Sequence record: MT331608
From: Escherichia phage SECphi4
Strand: one strand, 5' to 3'
DNA: 44,569 nucleotides
Within the stretch, counting starts at the first letter, position 1. Every line of letters starts with the position of its first letter. Both the position numbers and the translations under genes were made by a program. Positions 36,608-44,390 of this stretch are shown here, one piece after another. The notes below the pieces were generated by a model. The model searched no databases. It was not told the DNA's origin and saw only the letters and a program-made list of their open reading frames with translations.

Positions 36608-37215
36608 CAACGTTTAAATTGTACGGCGTCTTAGGGCGTCGTTTTGGTAAAGTGCATAAGCTGGACTGCTTCACACCGGGAGAAGGCATCACCGGCCTGT
36701 GTGTGAAGTTGCCAGGGTTACAAGACTTTTTAATGTCGGCCCACCTGGACAATATGATGTTCAAGGTGCGCAAAGGCAACCACACGATGACCGGTTATGA
36801 TGAGCTTGGCGAGTTCCACGGCAACCGCGTCGTTACCATCGCGCCGGTTATGACGGGGGCAAAAAGCGGACTGGGCCAATTGCTGGCGGGTGTCGCGATT
36901 GTAGTGGCGTCGTTCTATACTGGCGGACTTGCTACTGCCGCTTTCGGGGCTTCGGCTGCAACCGCTGCCGCTATCGGTACGGCTACATTTTCGTTCGGCA
37001 TGTCGCTTGCGCTGGGCGGTGCTATGCAATTGCTGTCCCCACAGCCGAAAGGATTGCAGACCCGGCAGGACGTGGATAACAAAGCGTCGTATGCGTTCGG
37101 CGGCCCTGTAAACACGACCGCACAAGGTACGGCACTTGGTGTATTATGGGGCGAGCGCGAGATCGGCGGCGCTATTATTTCAGCCGGAATCGTAACCGAG
37201 GACTTGAACGAATGA
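36598..37215 (+). CDS. Tail assembly protein (lambda gpI-like)
   Basis: 205 aa; glycine/alanine-rich hydrophobic C-terminal half; position between K-like and J-like genes. Confidence 0.7.
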   Translation: MAMTTFKLYGVLGRRFGKVHKLDCFTPGEGITGLCVKLPGLQDFLMSAHLDNMMFKVRKGNHTMTGYDELGEFHGNRVVTIAPVMTGAKSGLGQLLAGVAIVVASFYTGGLATAAFGASAATAAAIGTATFSFGMSLALGGAMQLLSPQPKGLQTRQDVDNKASYAFGGPVNTTAQGTALGVLWGEREIGGAIISAGIVTEDLNE

Positions 37216-40200
37216 CGATTGTATACGACGTCACAGGCCATAAAGGCGGCGGAGGCAAACAGCACACCCCACAGGAGACGCCTGATAGCCTGCATTCGCT
37301 GGCTAAAATCCGCATCTTGCTTGCGCTGGGTGAAGGGGAATTCGAAGGCATTACGAGCGCCAGCGAATTGCGGCAGCGTGTATACCTGGATGGAACACCT
37401 ATCCAGAACGCAGACCTGTCTGAAAACTTCCCCGGAGCGCGCGTGGAGTTCCGCCCCGGCACACAGCACCAGGATGTGATCCACGGATTTTCAGCGGTGG
37501 AAAGTGAGCAATCCGTCGGTGTAAAACTGGAAAACGGTACGCCGTGGGTGCGCCAGATTAACGACACCAGTCTTGACGCCGTGCGCGTTCGCATCGGCAT
37601 TCCTGCCCTGTACACTAGCGAAGATAATGGCGACCTGGTGGGCGGGCGCATCGACTATAAGATCGTTGTGTATACAGATAACGCCGACCCGCGTGAGTTT
37701 ACCTTCGCTGCCGTTGGTAAAACAATGTCGCTATACGAGCGCGATCACCGCATCGAGCTACCGCCGAACGTTAACACCGGCTGGCGCGTGGAGGTGCACC
37801 GCATAACGGCAGACTCCACATCGGCAAAAGTGGTTAACGATATCCAGGTGCAATCTATTACTGAGATTATCGACGCCCGTCTTCGCTACCCGCTAACCGC
37901 GCTGTTGTTCGTGGAGTTCGACGCTAAAGCGTTCCAGAACATCCCGCGCGTGTCCATTAAGTGCAAAGGCCGCAAAGTTCTAATACCGAACAACTACGAC
38001 CCGATTAATCATACTTATTCTGGCGACTGGGACGGAACGTTTAAACGCGCATGGTCGGACAACCCTGCGTGGCACTGGTACGATATTTGTATTACTGAGC
38101 GCTTCGGCCTCGGTCGCCGGATCAAACCGCAAATGCTGAACCGGTACGCGCTCTACCAGATCGCGCAGCGCTGCGATCAGTTGGTCAGCGACGGCAACGG
38201 CGGACGGGAAATCCGATTTAAGAATGATATGTACATCCAGTCGCAGACAGACGCCTGGACCGTGCTTAAGGATTTAGCTGCCATCTTCGCCGGGATGACC
38301 TGGTGGGGAAACCAAATGTTGAATATCGTCAGTGACCAACCGGTCGCAGCAGTGTCGCACACTATCACCAACGCCTCGGTTATTGATGGTCGATTCGACT
38401 ACGCATCTGGCAGCCAGAAAACGCGGTACTCCACTTTCGCGGTAGCATACGGCAACCCGAAAAACCACTATGATGACGCTATCGCAACGGGCCAGCGCGT
38501 CGAACTGGTGCGCCGCCATAAGATTAACCGTCTTGATATAACGGCGATCGGCTGTACGCGCGAATCTGAAGCGCAACGCCGCGGACACTGGGCGCTAATC
38601 TCCAACCAGTTGGACCAGCAGGTCAGCTTCAAGGTTGGCATGGAGGGGCTATTCTTTATTCCTGGTAGCGTAGTCGCGATCGCGGATACTAATATTTCTG
38701 GCGGATTCGAGACTCGCGGCGGTCGCCTGTTGTCAGACCCTGGCACGCGTACCGTGCTTAACACAGACAGCGAAATCACATTCCGCCCTGGTGATAAGTT
38801 CCTGGTGCGCACCGATAGCGGAAATGTGGAGACTCGCGAGATCGCCAGCGTCAACGGCAACAAGGTCACGCTAAAAACCGCACTGGATGCCGACCCGATT
38901 CCAGACCAACCGTTTTGCGTTGATGGCGACGATATCCAGTTGCAAAAATTCCGCATCACCGATCTGGAGTATGACGACTCTACGAGCACTTTCTCGGTGC
39001 GCGGGATTGAATACAACGATAGCAAATATGATGCCGTTGATAATGGCGCACGACTAGACCCAGGCATCTTTACGCAAGTGCCAGACGGGGTAATGAAGGG
39101 GCCGGAATCCGTTACCATCACCCCGTCGCAGATTTCATCGCAAGGACAGCTAATCACCAACGTGGATATTGTTTTCCCGCCGGTGAAAGATGCCGTGGTG
39201 TATGAAATCCAGTGGAGGCGTACAAGCCTGCAGAATATGGCGGTCCAGTGGGGTAACGACTGGGTGAATATCCCGCGCACGGCGTCGAATGGCGCGCACA
39301 TCCCTAACGTGTTCTCCGGAAACTACCAGGCGCGCGTCCGTGCGATCGGTATGGGCGAGATTTCATCCCCGTGGGTGTCGTCCGCCATCACGCCGGTCGA
39401 AGGTCGCCTCGGGGGACTTAACGCGCCTATCATCACCAACGCGATTTCTGGCCTTCACCAGATCTTGTGGAAGTGGAATCACAACAACGCCGCGACGGAT
39501 ATTTCTTACACCGAGCTTGAAGTCCGCAAGACGGGCGAAACGGAATGGAAGTTCTTAACAAACGTCCCGTATCCTGGCGCGGAGTACGCGCAAACGTCGC
39601 TGGAGTTCGGAATTTACCAGCAGTTGCGCGCCCGTGTAGCGGATAAAATCGGCAACCTGTCGGACTGGTCGGCCCCGTTTGAAGGGCAGGTGAGTGACAA
39701 AGTTGACGAGTACATGAAGGGGCTTGATGACGAGTTCTTGACTTCCGAGGATGGTAAACGCTTCCAGGAAGCAATCGACACTGTCCCGCAGGGTATTTAC
39801 GAGGCGATGCTCACCGACGCGCAGCAATTGTTCAACGCCCGCGCCGAGTACAAAGGGATTTATGCGGAAATAAAGGTGGCGTATAACGTGGCGGCAGACG
39901 CCCACAAGGCAGTCGCGCAACTGGAAACGTTGATCGGCACGCGCCTCGATGATGCGGAAGCGGCGATCCACACGTTGCAGACAGCGCAAAGCACACAGGA
40001 ACAAGCATTCGCCCAGTACCAGCAAACTGTTGCCGCTAAGTTTTCGGAACAGGAAGCCGCCATCCAGCAGGTACAAACGGCAACGGCGGACGTAGCGGGC
40101 GCGCTGGCGGAGTACAAGACCCAAGTCGCGGCGCAGTTCGGGCAGCAGTCCGCCGCTATCGAGCAGAAGATGACATCTTCGTTCAACCATGCGGGTGGTA

Positions 40201-40631
40201 GCGCCACATACAGCCTTAAGGCTGGCGTGACGTATAACGGGACTTACTACGACGCGGGTATGCAGCTTTCTGTTGTGACGGAAGGCGACGCGGTTAAATC
40301 CAGCATCGCGTTCAAAGCGGACCAGTTCTACATAATGCACCCATCTAACGGGTCGCTTTCGTCCGCGTTTATCGTAGACGGAGGCGCGGTGTATATTGAC
40401 ACGGCACGCATCAAAGACGCGACTATCAACTTCGCGCAGATCACGGACACGTTGCAATCGAATAACTATGACGGCGACACGCGTGGTTGGCGCTTAGGGA
40501 AAGATGGGACGTTTATCAACCTGGGAACCGGTAACGGTGGCGGGATGAAACAGACGAACACGCAAATCAGCGTGAAAGATGGGAACGGCGTTCTGCGCGT
40601 GCAGATTGGCGAAATTACGGGCAGTTGGTAA
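37212..40631 (+). CDS. Central tail fibre / host specificity protein (lambda gpJ-like)
   Basis: 1139 aa; N-terminus GGGKQHTPQETPDSLHSLAKIRILLALGEGEFEGI parallels the lambda J N-terminus; GAGGA SD. Confidence 0.85.
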   Translation: MTIVYDVTGHKGGGGKQHTPQETPDSLHSLAKIRILLALGEGEFEGITSASELRQRVYLDGTPIQNADLSENFPGARVEFRPGTQHQDVIHGFSAVESEQSVGVKLENGTPWVRQINDTSLDAVRVRIGIPALYTSEDNGDLVGGRIDYKIVVYTDNADPREFTFAAVGKTMSLYERDHRIELPPNVNTGWRVEVHRITADSTSAKVVNDIQVQSITEIIDARLRYPLTALLFVEFDAKAFQNIPRVSIKCKGRKVLIPNNYDPINHTYSGDWDGTFKRAWSDNPAWHWYDICITERFGLGRRIKPQMLNRYALYQIAQRCDQLVSDGNGGREIRFKNDMYIQSQTDAWTVLKDLAAIFAGMTWWGNQMLNIVSDQPVAAVSHTITNASVIDGRFDYASGSQKTRYSTFAVAYGNPKNHYDDAIATGQRVELVRRHKINRLDITAIGCTRESEAQRRGHWALISNQLDQQVSFKVGMEGLFFIPGSVVAIADTNISGGFETRGGRLLSDPGTRTVLNTDSEITFRPGDKFLVRTDSGNVETREIASVNGNKVTLKTALDADPIPDQPFCVDGDDIQLQKFRITDLEYDDSTSTFSVRGIEYNDSKYDAVDNGARLDPGIFTQVPDGVMKGPESVTITPSQISSQGQLITNVDIVFPPVKDAVVYEIQWRRTSLQNMAVQWGNDWVNIPRTASNGAHIPNVFSGNYQARVRAIGMGEISSPWVSSAITPVEGRLGGLNAPIITNAISGLHQILWKWNHNNAATDISYTELEVRKTGETEWKFLTNVPYPGAEYAQTSLEFGIYQQLRARVADKIGNLSDWSAPFEGQVSDKVDEYMKGLDDEFLTSEDGKRFQEAIDTVPQGIYEAMLTDAQQLFNARAEYKGIYAEIKVAYNVAADAHKAVAQLETLIGTRLDDAEAAIHTLQTAQSTQEQAFAQYQQTVAAKFSEQEAAIQQVQTATADVAGALAEYKTQVAAQFGQQSAAIEQKMTSSFNHAGGSATYSLKAGVTYNGTYYDAGMQLSVVTEGDAVKSSIAFKADQFYIMHPSNGSLSSAFIVDGGAVYIDTARIKDATINFAQITDTLQSNNYDGDTRGWRLGKDGTFINLGTGNGGGMKQTNTQISVKDGNGVLRVQIGEITGSW

Positions 40632-40669: not shown

Positions 40670-40972
40670 ATGGCTTTCGGAGTCGAAACATGGGACGAAC
40701 AAGGGCGACCAAACAACTACGGAATCAAACCGGTGTCGGTTGTCGGAATTATTAAACTGGCACAAGGTCAAACATCGGGGGCGTGGGCGTTCGATATTCC
40801 GTCAGGGATGAAAGTAGGTTTTGCGGTTACGCTGGACGTTGGCGGCACTACGGTCGGTAGGGCGATCCGTGCCAGCGGGAACACGATAACAGTGTCCGCG
40901 GCAAACAGCGCCGGTATTGGAAACTACCCGGCGTCAGAATGTGAAGTAGTAGTTTTTGTGGAGAAAGCGTAA
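40670..40972 (+). CDS. Hypothetical tail-associated protein
   Basis: 100-aa ORF with SD, between the J-like and fibre genes. Confidence 0.45.
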   Translation: MAFGVETWDEQGRPNNYGIKPVSVVGIIKLAQGQTSGAWAFDIPSGMKVGFAVTLDVGGTTVGRAIRASGNTITVSAANSAGIGNYPASECEVVVFVEKA

Positions 40973-40974
40973 AA

Positions 40975-41646
40975 ATGGCAAACTTCGGCGCGTTAATCGA
41001 TAACAACAACGGCAACCCATTCGTCACGCCAAACTCAACGCCGTTCGTCCTCTACGCTAAGGTGTCGGCAAATTCAGTGGACGCCGGTGCTGATTATAAA
41101 ACAGCAAGCGGGGGCGTGGATATCCCCTCGAACTATCCGGCAATGGTTTTCATGCGGTCAAACAACCGTTGCGTCCTGGCGGCGTCACGATCAGGTAATC
41201 GGATTATATTTAGCGGAAGCATTCAGGGGCAGAATAACCCACATTTTACCGTCACGGCGTACATATTCGCGCGGTTCCCGCAACCGCTGCCAAAATGGGG
41301 CTTTGCTATTTGGGACGCCAGCGGGACTTGCATACTAACCAACGAAAGCAAGGTGCTCACCGATCTAGTAACTGTCGGCAGCTTCGGTAATAGCGGAGGG
41401 ATTAACATAGACCAGACGCTGCCTGGTAAGTACGCGGTATCACCTATGTTAATGGGCGCTACTCTGATCCAGATCTTTGTACAGGGGCAGCCACAGATTA
41501 TCCAGATCTCGGCGGGGGCAGGGGCTTACGACAACGGAAGCGGCACTCGTATTAACGCAGTCGCTACGCAGGCTGGGTCTGGTAGCATCGCCGGGTATCA
41601 AAACACCGGCGTTGCGCTGACCGCAATTAACGTTGATGGGATATGA
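40975..41646 (+). CDS. Hypothetical tail-associated protein
   Basis: 223-aa Gly/Ser/Asn-rich ORF. Confidence 0.45.
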   Translation: MANFGALIDNNNGNPFVTPNSTPFVLYAKVSANSVDAGADYKTASGGVDIPSNYPAMVFMRSNNRCVLAASRSGNRIIFSGSIQGQNNPHFTVTAYIFARFPQPLPKWGFAIWDASGTCILTNESKVLTDLVTVGSFGNSGGINIDQTLPGKYAVSPMLMGATLIQIFVQGQPQIIQISAGAGAYDNGSGTRINAVATQAGSGSIAGYQNTGVALTAINVDGI

Positions 41647-41670
41647 AAAAGCCCCTTTCGGGGCTTATTT
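41646..41670. terminator. Bidirectional rho-independent terminator between convergent genes
   Basis: Stem AGCCCC/GGGGCT with TTTC loop flanked by an A run and a T run. Confidence 0.6.
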
Positions 41671-41886
41671 GCAGGTTGTGCTTTTGAAGTGGTCAACCGA
41701 CACATACTGGAAGTTGAATGGGTATCCCGCCCGTAACATTTTATGACCGTTAACGTCTGCAACCCCAAACACCGGGACCGAGTATTCCATGCCGCTATTA
41801 ATATATGTCGCGTCGCAGATTTTAGACGGCATATTGGCGCAACCGGACAAAAAAAAAGCCGCACAAATCATAATTAAAGTTTTCAT
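41665..41886 (-). CDS. Small lipoprotein (73 aa), candidate superinfection-exclusion protein
   Basis: Signal peptide MKTLIMICAAFFLSGC with lipobox LSGC; opposite strand to the flanking tail genes. Confidence 0.6.
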   Translation of the reverse strand: MKTLIMICAAFFLSGCANMPSKICDATYINSGMEYSVPVFGVADVNGHKMLRAGYPFNFQYVSVDHFKSTTCK

Positions 41887-41916
41887 GGTATCATCTCTTA
41901 TATTTGGTTGAGTTTT

Positions 41917-41945
41917 AGTATCGCACTGCTTAACCATTAATGCAA
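41917..41945 (-). promoter_or_regulatory. Candidate promoter (TTGCAT-N17-GATACT) with an ATTGGTTGCA copy
   Basis: Motif at 41941..41950 on the complementary strand, upstream of the lipoprotein gene. Confidence 0.35.
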
Positions 41946-41966
41946 CCAATTTATGAGGATTTAGCA

Positions 41967-43784
41967 ATGGCGGCGGGAACATTATCCGTAACGAATAACA
42001 GCAAGACAGTTGTAGGGGTTGGCACGACGTTCACCGCGTTTAAAGCTGGCGACTTCTTAACTCTGGTGGTGGGGCAAGTGCCTTACACTGTTGCGATCGC
42101 GTCCGTAGAAAGCGACACCGCGCTTACGCTGGTGCTGCCGTTCGACGGCCCAACGGCAGCAGGCCTTGCGTGGGATGGCGTTAAGCGCGATACCATGTCG
42201 CTGGCAACGATGGGCGTAACAGTACAGGCACAGAAAGCGTTGCGCTTGATGCTCGCGGACGAAAACAACTGGCGTGCGATATTCGGAGACGAAGAAGAAA
42301 TCACGGTAACGCTGCCGAACGGGCAAGTAATGCAGGGTATGTCGTGGGGCTATCTGTCGCAATTGATGAAGGAAATAGACCCCGTTGAGATGCGCAACCT
42401 GCAACAAAAAACCCGCGAGTCTGAGTTAGCCACGTGGCATTATCGGCAGGAGGTCGAAGGCTTTAAGAACGACACCAATTCCATCAAGGACCAGACAAAC
42501 CAGATTAAGGAGGATACGCAGGCTATCCACGACGCCACCAATGCCATCAAGGACCAGACAAACCAGATTAAGGCTGACACCGGCGTTATTCGCGACGAGG
42601 CCAATGCCGCGAATGCTGAAGCGCAAGCCGCCAGCACTGCCGCGCAGGGATTTCGCGATCAGGCCGAAGAATTGGTGCAAAGCATAAACCCCGACAATCT
42701 GCTAACCAAATCCGGCAACCTGGCGGGCCTGGCTGACCGCGCCGCTTCATGGCTTAATATTCGCCCGATTGGACCTACTCCGCTCGCTGGCGATCCTGTT
42801 GACGATTATGACGCCACCACGAAGCGTTGGGTGCAGAATACGCTAAACTCTGGCGTAATCGGACAAAGCTGGGGTGTTAAGAACGTAAATGTTAGCACCC
42901 CAGAGCCAGGCGTTAACGTCAGTGGCGGAATGTTGGTGTCTGAATACTCCAACCCGGAACGCAGTCTTTTTGCTCGCCTATACTCGAACACTGTATGGGG
43001 TTATCCTGGAGCGGCTATTATTGAGGCGGAAGGTAGTAACAAGCACACATACCAGTTTTTTGAAGACGGCACTGTTGATTTCAGGAAATCCGGTAATTCA
43101 AACCGAGTCAGCATGCACACATCCACCTCAAGTTGGTATAACGTCACAACGGCGTCACGCACCGACTTGACATCAGGTGGGGTTGACAGAATTCTGGAAG
43201 CAGAGGCGTCGGATATTTTAGTACTGGGGTACACTATTGGTGCGTCACGTCCTGACGGCTACCCAACAAAAGTAGGCTTTCATCAATATATTTGGCCTAC
43301 GGAATCATACAACTTCGCTTCAGCGGTAATCTCAATTGGTGCGGACAATGGTTGGTGTAAATTCCTTTTTGGTGTGGACGGGGTGATCTGGGGGTCTACA
43401 GATCAAGGTGATTTTTCCTACACCCGTAACGGTGTGTCCGACTCGCGTGTTAAGCACGGCATAGAGCCAACAACCGTTGATAAGGCGTGGAGTAACTTGA
43501 CATCCCTACAGTTTGTAACGTTTGTTTATAATAACGATGAGCAGGAGCGCCAGCGACGTGGCATTATCGCGCAGCAAGCAGAGACTGTAGATAAGCTATA
43601 TGTAAAAACAAGGGTTTATCCTGGTAAAAATACAGGGGACTCTATGGTTGAACAGAAGGAACTGGATACTATGCCATTGCTTCTTGACACCATGCATGTT
43701 GTGCAAACGCTGATGCTGAAGATCGAGGCGATGGAAGCAGAGATTGCCACCCTTAGAGAAGAAGTGGCGGAGTTGAAGAAATAA
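41967..43784 (+). CDS. Side tail fibre with coiled-coil repeats and probable C-terminal intramolecular chaperone domain
   Basis: 605 aa; tandem 21-aa repeats (T-N-x-I-K-D-Q-T-N-Q-I-K); C-terminal SDSRVK...GIIAQ motifs resemble the S74-type chaperone domain. Confidence 0.7.
   Translation: MAAGTLSVTNNSKTVVGVGTTFTAFKAGDFLTLVVGQVPYTVAIASVESDTALTLVLPFDGPTAAGLAWDGVKRDTMSLATMGVTVQAQKALRLMLADENNWRAIFGDEEEITVTLPNGQVMQGMSWGYLSQLMKEIDPVEMRNLQQKTRESELATWHYRQEVEGFKNDTNSIKDQTNQIKEDTQAIHDATNAIKDQTNQIKADTGVIRDEANAANAEAQAASTAAQGFRDQAEELVQSINPDNLLTKSGNLAGLADRAASWLNIRPIGPTPLAGDPVDDYDATTKRWVQNTLNSGVIGQSWGVKNVNVSTPEPGVNVSGGMLVSEYSNPERSLFARLYSNTVWGYPGAAIIEAEGSNKHTYQFFEDGTVDFRKSGNSNRVSMHTSTSSWYNVTTASRTDLTSGGVDRILEAEASDILVLGYTIGASRPDGYPTKVGFHQYIWPTESYNFASAVISIGADNGWCKFLFGVDGVIWGSTDQGDFSYTRNGVSDSRVKHGIEPTTVDKAWSNLTSLQFVTFVYNNDEQERQRRGIIAQQAETVDKLYVKTRVYPGKNTGDSMVEQKELDTMPLLLDTMHVVQTLMLKIEAMEAEIATLREEVAELKK
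42471..42590. repeat. Tandem 63-bp repeat inside the fibre gene
   Basis: Repeated aat(t/g)ccatcaaggaccagacaaaccagattaagg at about 42477 and 42540. Confidence 0.8.
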
Positions 43785-43787
43785 ACT

Positions 43788-43816
43788 AAAAAGGGGCCAT
43801 GCGGCCCTTTTTTTTT
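43788..43816. terminator. Bidirectional rho-independent terminator where the two arms converge
   Basis: Stem GGGCC/GGCCC with ATGC loop flanked by A5 and T9. Confidence 0.7.
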
Positions 43817-44390
43817 AGTTTGAGTTTTCCCAATCCATTTTGCGCCTCACCAGCGGGCTTTCGAAGTATTCCTTACCTTCCACTTCCACTAAAGGCCAAT
43901 CGTTCACGATCACGTATGGCTCTGCTATATCCTCAATCACACCGTGCGCGCTATGCTGCCCAAACGACACACCAACCAGAATAACACCGGCAACTCGACG
44001 GGAAAGATACTCGCGAGCGCAACGGGCCTCAACCAGCCCGCGACGGATGCCGCTGGTAGCTTTGACCTCATAGGTCCAGACGGCATCAATCATGTGTTCC
44101 CGGAAGTCTGGGCCGGATTTAACCTTGCGCTTACCGACCATGATAATATCGCCGCGGTCGATAGTGTTAGCGCTAAACAGGCCGGTACGCATTAGCAAAC
44201 CTTGCGGAATACAGCTACGCCCGCCCGCCTGCCCTTCGAGGTACATGCCCGCAAACATCTCACCCAGCACACCGACCAGACGGCTTTGCTTGCAAGCGTC
44301 GGACTTGTATCGCCACTGGTCAAACTCGATGCTCGCGATCATCGCCGCCAGGTGGAATTGTTTACCAGATATTTCATATTCGCCGTACAT
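43815..44390 (-). CDS. Hypothetical protein with PD-(D/E)XK-like motif
   Basis: 191 aa; GPDF...IDAVWTYEVK resembles a restriction-endonuclease-fold core; last gene of the minus-strand arm. Confidence 0.5.
   Translation of the reverse strand: MYGEYEISGKQFHLAAMIASIEFDQWRYKSDACKQSRLVGVLGEMFAGMYLEGQAGGRSCIPQGLLMRTGLFSANTIDRGDIIMVGKRKVKSGPDFREHMIDAVWTYEVKATSGIRRGLVEARCAREYLSRRVAGVILVGVSFGQHSAHGVIEDIAEPYVIVNDWPLVEVEGKEYFESPLVRRKMDWENSN

Follow-up and report, generated by a model that had tools for sequence, protein, structure and literature searches.

A probable lateral tail fibre gene of Escherichia phage SECphi4, with a heptad-repeat stalk, an exchangeable tip and a predicted self-cleaving C-terminal chaperone

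The L-shaped lateral tail fibre protein pb1 of the siphovirus T5 (1396 aa; PDB 4UW7/4UW8) ends in an intramolecular chaperone which is cut off at a serine residue, with a lysine located five residues downstream, whereby the glycan-binding tip is unmasked (PMC4690869). Lys1269 activates Ser1264, the Thr1263-Ser1264 bond is cut in the folded trimer only, and uncleaved pb1 fails to compete for adsorption (PMC4690869). The same Ser-Lys dyad operates in MyRF, which requires trimerization via its C-terminal helix (PMC8326128). The cargo of such chaperones comprises a sialidase beta-propeller and triple beta-helix in the endosialidase K1F endoNF (3GW6), a neck appendage in GA-1 gp12 (3GUD), and a eukaryotic transcription factor in the case of MyRF ICA (7DC3). 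[quoted passage not shown] Its pre-cleavage region sets O-antigen specificity, and exchange of the stretch that directly precedes the cleavage site changes the host specificity of DT57C and DT571/2 (PMC4728585).

Within the genus Dhillonvirus, lateral fibres have been proposed to be O-antigen binders, and the BASEL study assigned the determinant of the terminal receptor to the locus that follows J, and the lateral fibre that binds O-antigen to the gene studied here (PMC8594841). The 2025 BASEL paper (PMC11990801) defined the distal domain of the T-shaped fibres of Tequintavirus, Seuratvirus, Wifcevirus and Kuravirus phages as "T5-like RBD2" with attached chaperone, and noted that such RBD domains often move horizontally. 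Fibre architecture, mosaic evolution and chaperone mechanism are already described, the architecture for Dhillonvirus in that same paper (PMC11990801). SECphi4 is a siphophage of the genus Dhillonvirus (Hör et al.). It is grown on rough K-12.

The window analyzed here is the whole stretch of 44,569 nt from SECphi4 (sequence record MT331608). With a probability of roughly 90%, the gene at 41967-43784 codes for a lateral tail fibre composed of an anchor, a heptad-repeat helical stalk, an exchangeable tip and a self-cleaving C-terminal chaperone. The gene and its neighbours are as follows:
37146-40631, upstream of the fibre gene: lambda-J-like central fibre, 1161 aa (NF049904, E 7e-109).
41967..43784, plus strand: probable lateral (side) tail fibre gene, precursor of 605 aa and 66.2 kDa (open reading frame, phrog_1980, homologue starts).
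43788..43813, no strand assigned: bidirectional terminator, a GC-rich hairpin flanked on either strand by T-runs, separating the fibre gene from a convergent 191-aa ORF.

Including upstream codons, the open frame extends over 41940..43784 on the plus strand. ATG 41967 is preceded by GAGGA at a distance of 7 nt, and an equivalent start codon, giving a protein beginning with MAAGTLSV, is found in nine of ten annotated Dhillonvirus homologues, so that the gene coordinates proposed in the earlier note are right. ATG 41940 was rejected as start because it lacks a ribosome-binding site, because the homologues begin with MAAGTL, and because the database protein comprises 605 aa. The latter, deposited as "hypothetical protein", is 100% identical to the product predicted here. 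In the PHROG profile search the product matched phrog_1980, "tail fiber protein" (E 6e-124), while the NCBIfam profile search retrieved no model for the fibre; the homologues of the BASEL phages GeorgBuechner, Oekolampad and PaulFeyerabend are named "lateral tail fiber protein".

Bases 20000-41900 of the window align from end to end with many Dhillonvirus genomes, at 93% identity. Comparison with ten relatives revealed the same gene order in all of them, namely J, two small ORFs, cor, and the fibre gene. The two small ORFs match phrog_557 and phrog_425, and the exclusion lipoprotein Cor, encoded on the minus strand, was identified by the equivalog model NF047972 (61.8 bits, cut-off 31). Beyond the terminator, the convergent conserved 191-aa ORF corresponds to phrog_10558. 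The homologues of phages B2, JL1, EK99P-1 and ZCEC10 are annotated as "putative tail tip protein", which would make the product a tail-tip or central receptor-binding protein instead of a side fibre. However, the lambda-J-like central fibre is encoded just upstream, followed by a receptor-binding locus of its own and by cor; Hör et al. name the J homologue as the central tail fibre of SECphi4; the BASEL papers assign the gene to the lateral fibre; and anchor, coiled coil, T5-like tip and chaperone together constitute a lateral-fibre architecture. We therefore regard a tail-tip protein as extremely improbable. The position after J, the receptor-binding locus and cor, as well as the retained N-terminal anchor, place the product among the lateral fibres of Dhillonvirus, such as Gp29 of RuthEpting (Bas85) and the fibres of Oekolampad, GeorgBuechner and PaulFeyerabend (PMC8594841, PMC11990801), with which it shares genus, locus, an N-terminal region of 150 aa with at least 90% identity, and the plan of anchor, long coiled coil, tip and C-terminal chaperone.

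The proximal half of the protein comprises the following features:
41967..42371, plus strand: putative virion-attachment domain, aa 1-135, conserved across Dhillonvirus.
42381..42683, plus strand: heptad-repeat stalk, predicted continuous alpha-helix, aa 139-239 (AF2, heptad register).
42469..42594, plus strand: two adjoining 63-nt direct repeats of three heptads each, 51/63 identical.

When compared in blocks of 30 aa, aa 1-150 show at least 90% amino acid identity to Dhillonvirus fibres; at the nucleotide level, the N-terminal region is 83-88% identical to Dhillonvirus genomes. A sequence search of solved structures indicated that aa 1-73 resemble the "Distal tail protein gp20" (PDB 23gd_B, E 8.9e-6). 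By analogy to the BASEL phages (PMC8594841), aa 1-135 probably attach the fibre to the virion.

The AF2 monomer model shows one uninterrupted helix from aa 139 to 239, with pLDDT values of up to 92. Within it, aa 167-229 form nine in-register heptads, in which position 4 is Thr or Ala and position 7 is Ile, Ala or Phe. The stalk is presumed to be a trimeric coiled coil with a length of about 15 nm. The earlier note had described near-identical 63-bp repeats encoding T-N-x-I-K-D-Q-T-N-Q-I-K units. A repeat search found exactly two copies, at 42469-42531 and 42532-42594, with 81% identity and a longest exact run of 30 nt, a match far above chance. The existence of two copies thus holds, as do the encoded units, TNSIKDQTNQIK (aa 170-181) and TNAIKDQTNQIK (aa 191-202). 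Near-identity, however, is confined to the first two thirds: in all, 51 of 63 positions agree, with 40 of the first 42 and 11 of the last 21. Tandem Repeats Finder (minimum score 30) did not report an array; there are only two copies, and their last third has diverged. The true repeat length is one heptad of 7 aa, and the "21-aa repeat" thus represents a three-heptad block, recently duplicated or homogenized.

Stalk length was assessed in 55 homologues as the distance between the conserved anchors EMRxLQQ and NLLTKxGNL. It amounts to 117 aa in 41 of them, 110 aa in nine, 96 aa in three, and 33 aa in one; SECphi4 alone has 103 aa, two heptads below the modal value. All differences are multiples of 7. 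The repeat count thus does vary across isolates, as the earlier note had suspected, but in steps of one heptad (21 nt) and not of 21 aa. In the DNA alignment, SECphi4 lacks 42 nt which are present in YD-2008.s and HK1, the gap lying before an ATCAAG-type heptad start, and HH3 lacks 63 nt relative to the same two phages at a different site. Coiled coils tolerate in-register indels. Stalk evolution may have proceeded by gain or loss of heptad units in register; slippage or recombination may be the source of these length changes, and the data fit either. Predicted helix, register and 7-aa length steps together characterize the region as a heptad-repeat helical stalk of the kind found in lateral fibres.

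In the block-wise identity profile, aa 151-180 are variable and aa 181-270 moderately conserved. In contrast to the other Dhillonvirus fibres, SECphi4 carries at aa 147-165 a divergent patch, KTRESELATWHYRQ, common only to three metagenomic homologues. A frameshift was rejected as its cause, since the aligned DNA is of equal length and differs by substitutions only; judging from the alignment, the divergence is best read as a small mosaic patch. In the distal part of the protein, the following features are located:
42696..42866, plus strand: conserved linker NLLTKSGNLAGLAD...RPIGPTPLAGDPVDDYDATTKRWV, aa 244-300, where the variable tip joins.
42867..43436, plus strand: predicted beta-rich distal receptor-binding domain, aa 301-490, mosaic and variable (AF2, identity profile).

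Nucleotide matches to other Dhillonvirus genomes end at about nt 707-872 of the query. The linker aligns to residues 483-595 of DT57C LtfA, the best sequence match among solved structures (E 3e-31), with which the SECphi4 protein shares the chaperone domain and the junction NL..LADRAA.WLN.RPIG.TPLAGDPV.DYDA.TKRWV. The block aa 271-300 (RPIG..PLAGDP..TKRWV), which also resembles DT57C LtfA, is most similar, with 70-76% identity, to the HH3 (Dhillonvirus), Tequintavirus PH204 and P0066 fibres.

Downstream of this block the nearest relative changes. According to the identity profile, aa 301-600 are closest to the fibre of Kuravirus O18-011 (BCG45084.1), and tblastn gave 73.7% amino acid identity over aa 301-597, making it the closest tip-plus-chaperone cassette. 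O18-011 belongs to another genus (Kuravirus, Gordonclarkvirinae) and the N-terminal 300 aa of its fibre are unrelated to those of SECphi4, which suggests that the cassette was transferred horizontally. Fibres of Tequintavirus, Seuratvirus (VogelGryff), Wifcevirus (ManiWeber) and other Kuravirus phages share 50-59% identity over aa 301-597; in the tblastn search, values were 57% for ManiWeber_Bas99, 55-59% for Tequintavirus fibres and 50% for other Kuravirus-related fibres. By sequence homology, tip and chaperone thus belong to the T5-like RBD2 class. Compared with other Dhillonvirus fibres, the tip allele of SECphi4 differs: full-length identity reaches 67% at best, and the tips of other Dhillonvirus fibres show 16-60% identity to it. 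The cassette of tip and chaperone would be exchanged at the conserved NLLTKSGNLAGL / PLAGDP...TKRWV junction. The literature retrieved for O18-011 consisted of genome papers, and no receptor is assigned on this basis. The proposal of the earlier note that the region upstream of the predicted cleavage site is the likely host-range determinant is borne out insofar as this region is variable and horizontally exchanged, in agreement with the specificity region mapped by experiment in DT57C LtfA (PMC4728585).

In the AF2 model, the tip consists of strands at aa 317-485 with pLDDT values mostly of 72-85; at aa 371-390 and 401-420 they drop to about 50-57. Modelling of aa 305-605 alone gave a worse tip, with pLDDT <50 over much of it, and the fold searches were run without this model. 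Fold searches, intended also for comparison with the bullet-shaped domain of T5 pb1, yielded no meaningful match to aa 301-490 with the monomer models, from which an intertwined trimer cannot be judged. This lack of a fold assignment would leave room for an enzymatic domain, i.e., a tailspike-like glycan depolymerase or deacetylase instead of a pure binding tip, the more so as the earliest described carriers of the chaperone domain are enzymes (endosialidases, K5 lyase). Against this, Pfam, NCBIfam and PHROG searches revealed no enzymatic domain in aa 301-490, the tip with its approximately 190 aa is too small for a beta-helix depolymerase, and its 50-59% identity to the corresponding parts of Wifcevirus, Kuravirus and Tequintavirus fibres connects it to "T5-like RBD2", a non-enzymatic class in the BASEL scheme. 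An enzymatic tip is thus very improbable, and we consider aa 301-490 as a receptor-binding domain.

The C-terminal part of the protein contains the following elements:
43437..43781, plus strand: intramolecular chaperone / Peptidase_S74 domain, aa 491-605, 13.2 kDa (profile, sequence, fold).
43437..43454, plus strand: S491-D-S-R-V-K496, predicted catalytic Ser-Lys dyad, with invariant S491 and K496.
43560..43574, plus strand: GIIAQ motif, aa 532-536, with G532 invariant and I534 and A535 at least 90% conserved.
43668..43778, plus strand: C-terminal helix, aa 568-604 (AF2, pLDDT about 90).

The motifs SDSRVKHG (aa 491-498; 43437-43460) and GIIAQ, pointed out previously as resembling a chaperone domain, are present, and the suggested search for an S74-type profile was positive: Pfam PF13884 (Peptidase_S74) matches aa 491-541 (E 1.3e-10; 41.9 bits, gathering score 22), with Ser491 at profile position 1. 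In an alignment of 62 homologues, Met1, Ser491, Lys496 and Gly532 are the only invariant columns. The S-x4-K spacing at the N-terminal border of the domain equals that of T5 Ser1264/Lys1269; in DT57C LtfA, which moreover differs in length and in being part of a branched fibre, the corresponding motif is SGIEYK instead of SDSRVK. T5 pb1 has another shaft, its likeness to the SECphi4 fibre being mediated by the S74 family and the BASEL "T5-like RBD" class.

A search of solved structures with the single sequence recovered only DT57C LtfA and the N-terminal match. A domain profile built from eight Dhillonvirus C-termini, in contrast, matched the autocleaving chaperones of DT57C LtfA (1.9e-39) and MyRF ICA (7dc3, 3.6e-10) as well as 8jov (6e-10), and furthermore 6f45 (1e-8) and the GA-1-type gp12 (3gud, 9e-5). 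T5 pb1 was found neither by sequence among solved structures nor among the listed PDB fold matches, and the endosialidase chaperone 3gw6 appeared in fold searches only. Identities to endoNF, gp12 and MyRF ICA, which carry different cargo, are 11-20%. The AF2 model of the domain (pLDDT 86-90) ends in helix 568-604 and has the fold of solved IMC domains including the long C-terminal helix; in BFVD it matched S74 tail fibres from T1-like and T5-like phages. The last 20 residues of the helix follow a canonical a/d register with I/I/V at a and M/L/L at d. As known from the MyRF and T5 structures, the helix is presumed to act as the trimerizing coiled coil of the chaperone. In profile, dyad and fold, aa 491-605 pass all computable tests for an S74 chaperone; the repeats and motifs observed earlier, and the chaperone interpretation, hold on all in silico checks. 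When transposed from T5, the predicted cut is between Val490 and Ser491 and would convert the 66.2-kDa precursor to products of 53.0 and 13.2 kDa.

It is conceivable that the S74-like domain is not removed and permanently caps the C-terminus of the mature fibre, or that it is cut only partially. The "sensor" residues which gate cleavage in T5 and K1F, an Arg from a neighbouring chain and an Asp, could not be located from the monomer models, i.e., no counterparts of T5 Arg1250 and Asp1239 (PMC4690869) could be mapped, and in the relative EK99P-1 the dyad Lys is replaced by Glu (SDERIEED), implying that non-canonical versions occur in the genus. Nevertheless, Ser491 and Lys496 are intact in SECphi4 and invariant in the 62 homologues, the domain matches domains with proven autocleavage in profile as well as in fold, and retention is probably deleterious, as the uncleaved form of T5 masks the binding site. 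A permanent or partially cut cap is therefore quite unlikely, and autocleavage remains the preferred reading.

From homologues with solved structures, we infer the following scheme of assembly and function. Three 66-kDa precursors would associate, with nucleation by the chaperone (aa 491-605), whose last helix would form a trimeric coiled coil, and the beta-rich tip (aa 301-490) would fold on the chaperone as template. After correct folding of the trimer, Ser491, activated by Lys496, would cut the Val490-Ser491 bond in each chain; departure of the 13-kDa chaperone would expose the receptor-binding tip of the 53-kDa mature subunit. The genus-conserved aa 1-135 would anchor the mature fibre to the tail tip, with the helical stalk of about 100 residues (aa 139-239) holding the tip out. 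By analogy to the fibres of T5 and DT57C and to the BASEL work on Dhillonvirus, the tip might bind a surface glycan reversibly, most likely O-antigen, and so help the phage to cross this layer, before the central fibre (J and the receptor-binding locus downstream of it) makes contact with an outer-membrane protein. On rough K-12 hosts the fibre would be expected to be dispensable. One could go further and regard the heptad array as a length-tuning device which changes rather often within phage populations by recombination between the near-identical 42-nt cores, so that the unusual nine-heptad stalk, along with a tip allele whose nearest characterized relative is the O18-011 fibre (74%), would fit a glycan layer of a particular thickness and type that no Dhillonvirus has so far been assigned; we consider this extension unlikely.

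SECphi4 is widely used in anti-phage-defence research, yet its fibre has been deposited unnamed. The analysis provides a name for the gene, domain borders, a predicted maturation site at Val490|Ser491, and expected band sizes of 66, 53 and 13 kDa, and identifies the junction at aa 244-300 as a possible place for tip swaps in host-range engineering.

Features within the lateral tail fibre gene (window 41967-43784, + strand):
41967-42185, fibre aa 1-73, resembling residues 1-73 of PDB 23gd_B (E 8.9e-6)
42405-42461, fibre aa 147-165, divergent 19-aa patch KTRESELATWHYRQEVEGF, where the genus consensus is QAAASEAAAQGFRNEAEGF
42428-42445 and 43552-43569, direct repeat of 18 nt, AGCCACGTGGCATTATCG / AGCGACGTGGCATTATCG, with a single mismatch

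The PDB entry matched by the extreme N-terminus of the fibre carries the name “Distal tail protein gp20”, and the same end of the protein also resembles phrog_9922, “minor tail protein” (199-aa profile); these two likenesses suggest an attachment module that occurs both in side fibres and, in other phages, in a small tail-tip protein. The patch at aa 147-165 differs from the genus consensus by dense substitutions only, the length being the same. A frameshift as its origin was rejected, since none is present and the length is unchanged. Among the 120 best homologues, the patch occurs in only three metagenomic proteins (P0047, P0054, P0101). One copy of the 18-nt repeat lies in this patch and the other where RRGIIAQ of the chaperone domain is encoded, the two being read in different reading frames. 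The repeat may be due to chance; by a rough estimate, about 1e-3 pairs of 18 nt with one mismatch are expected in 1.8 kb.

In the fibre of the relative EK99P-1 (L007, 2501-4162; TSDERIEEDI), the position of the catalytic Lys of the C-terminal chaperone domain is occupied by Glu, and its chaperone may therefore fail to self-cleave. The fibre of 011D5 (L008, 2501-4141) ends in an unrelated domain in which no S74 motif was found. Of the database homologues, several lack PF13884 (P0064, P0069, P0079, P0099), and P0101 and P0115 carry PF25670 in its place.

Features flanking the fibre gene (window coordinates):
40670-40972, + strand, small ORF, phrog_557 “outer membrane protein”, lying between the central fibre gene J and cor
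40975-41646, + strand, small ORF between J and cor, phrog_425 “membrane associated protein”
41665-41886, - strand, exclusion lipoprotein Cor (NCBIfam NF047972 equivalog, 61.8 bits; phrog_1119)
43788-43813, 3' of the fibre gene, GC-rich hairpin flanked by an A-run and a T-run
43815-44390, - strand, convergent 191-aa ORF, phrog_10558, function unassigned

The putative terminator formed by the hairpin can serve the fibre gene as well as the convergent ORF, which is kept at the same position in most Dhillonvirus relatives examined. Directly 5' of the fibre gene, cor is oriented divergently to it. The mechanical cor ORF (41665-41982, - strand) has 32 extra codons upstream, with which it would reach into the beginning of the fibre gene; according to profile matches and the relatives' annotations, the predicted Cor start is Met33 of this ORF (MKTLIMICAAFFLSGC, with lipobox).

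The locus that contains the phrog_557 and phrog_425 ORFs is the one named the bona fide receptor-binding locus by BASEL. This two-ORF allele is also present in YD-2008.s, B2 and ZCEC11. In JL1, HK1, EK99P-1, 011D5 and WFI the locus contains just one gene, which encodes 321 aa and lies on the other strand, and PTXU06 shows yet another organisation. Phages of these different groups probably do not share the same terminal receptor.
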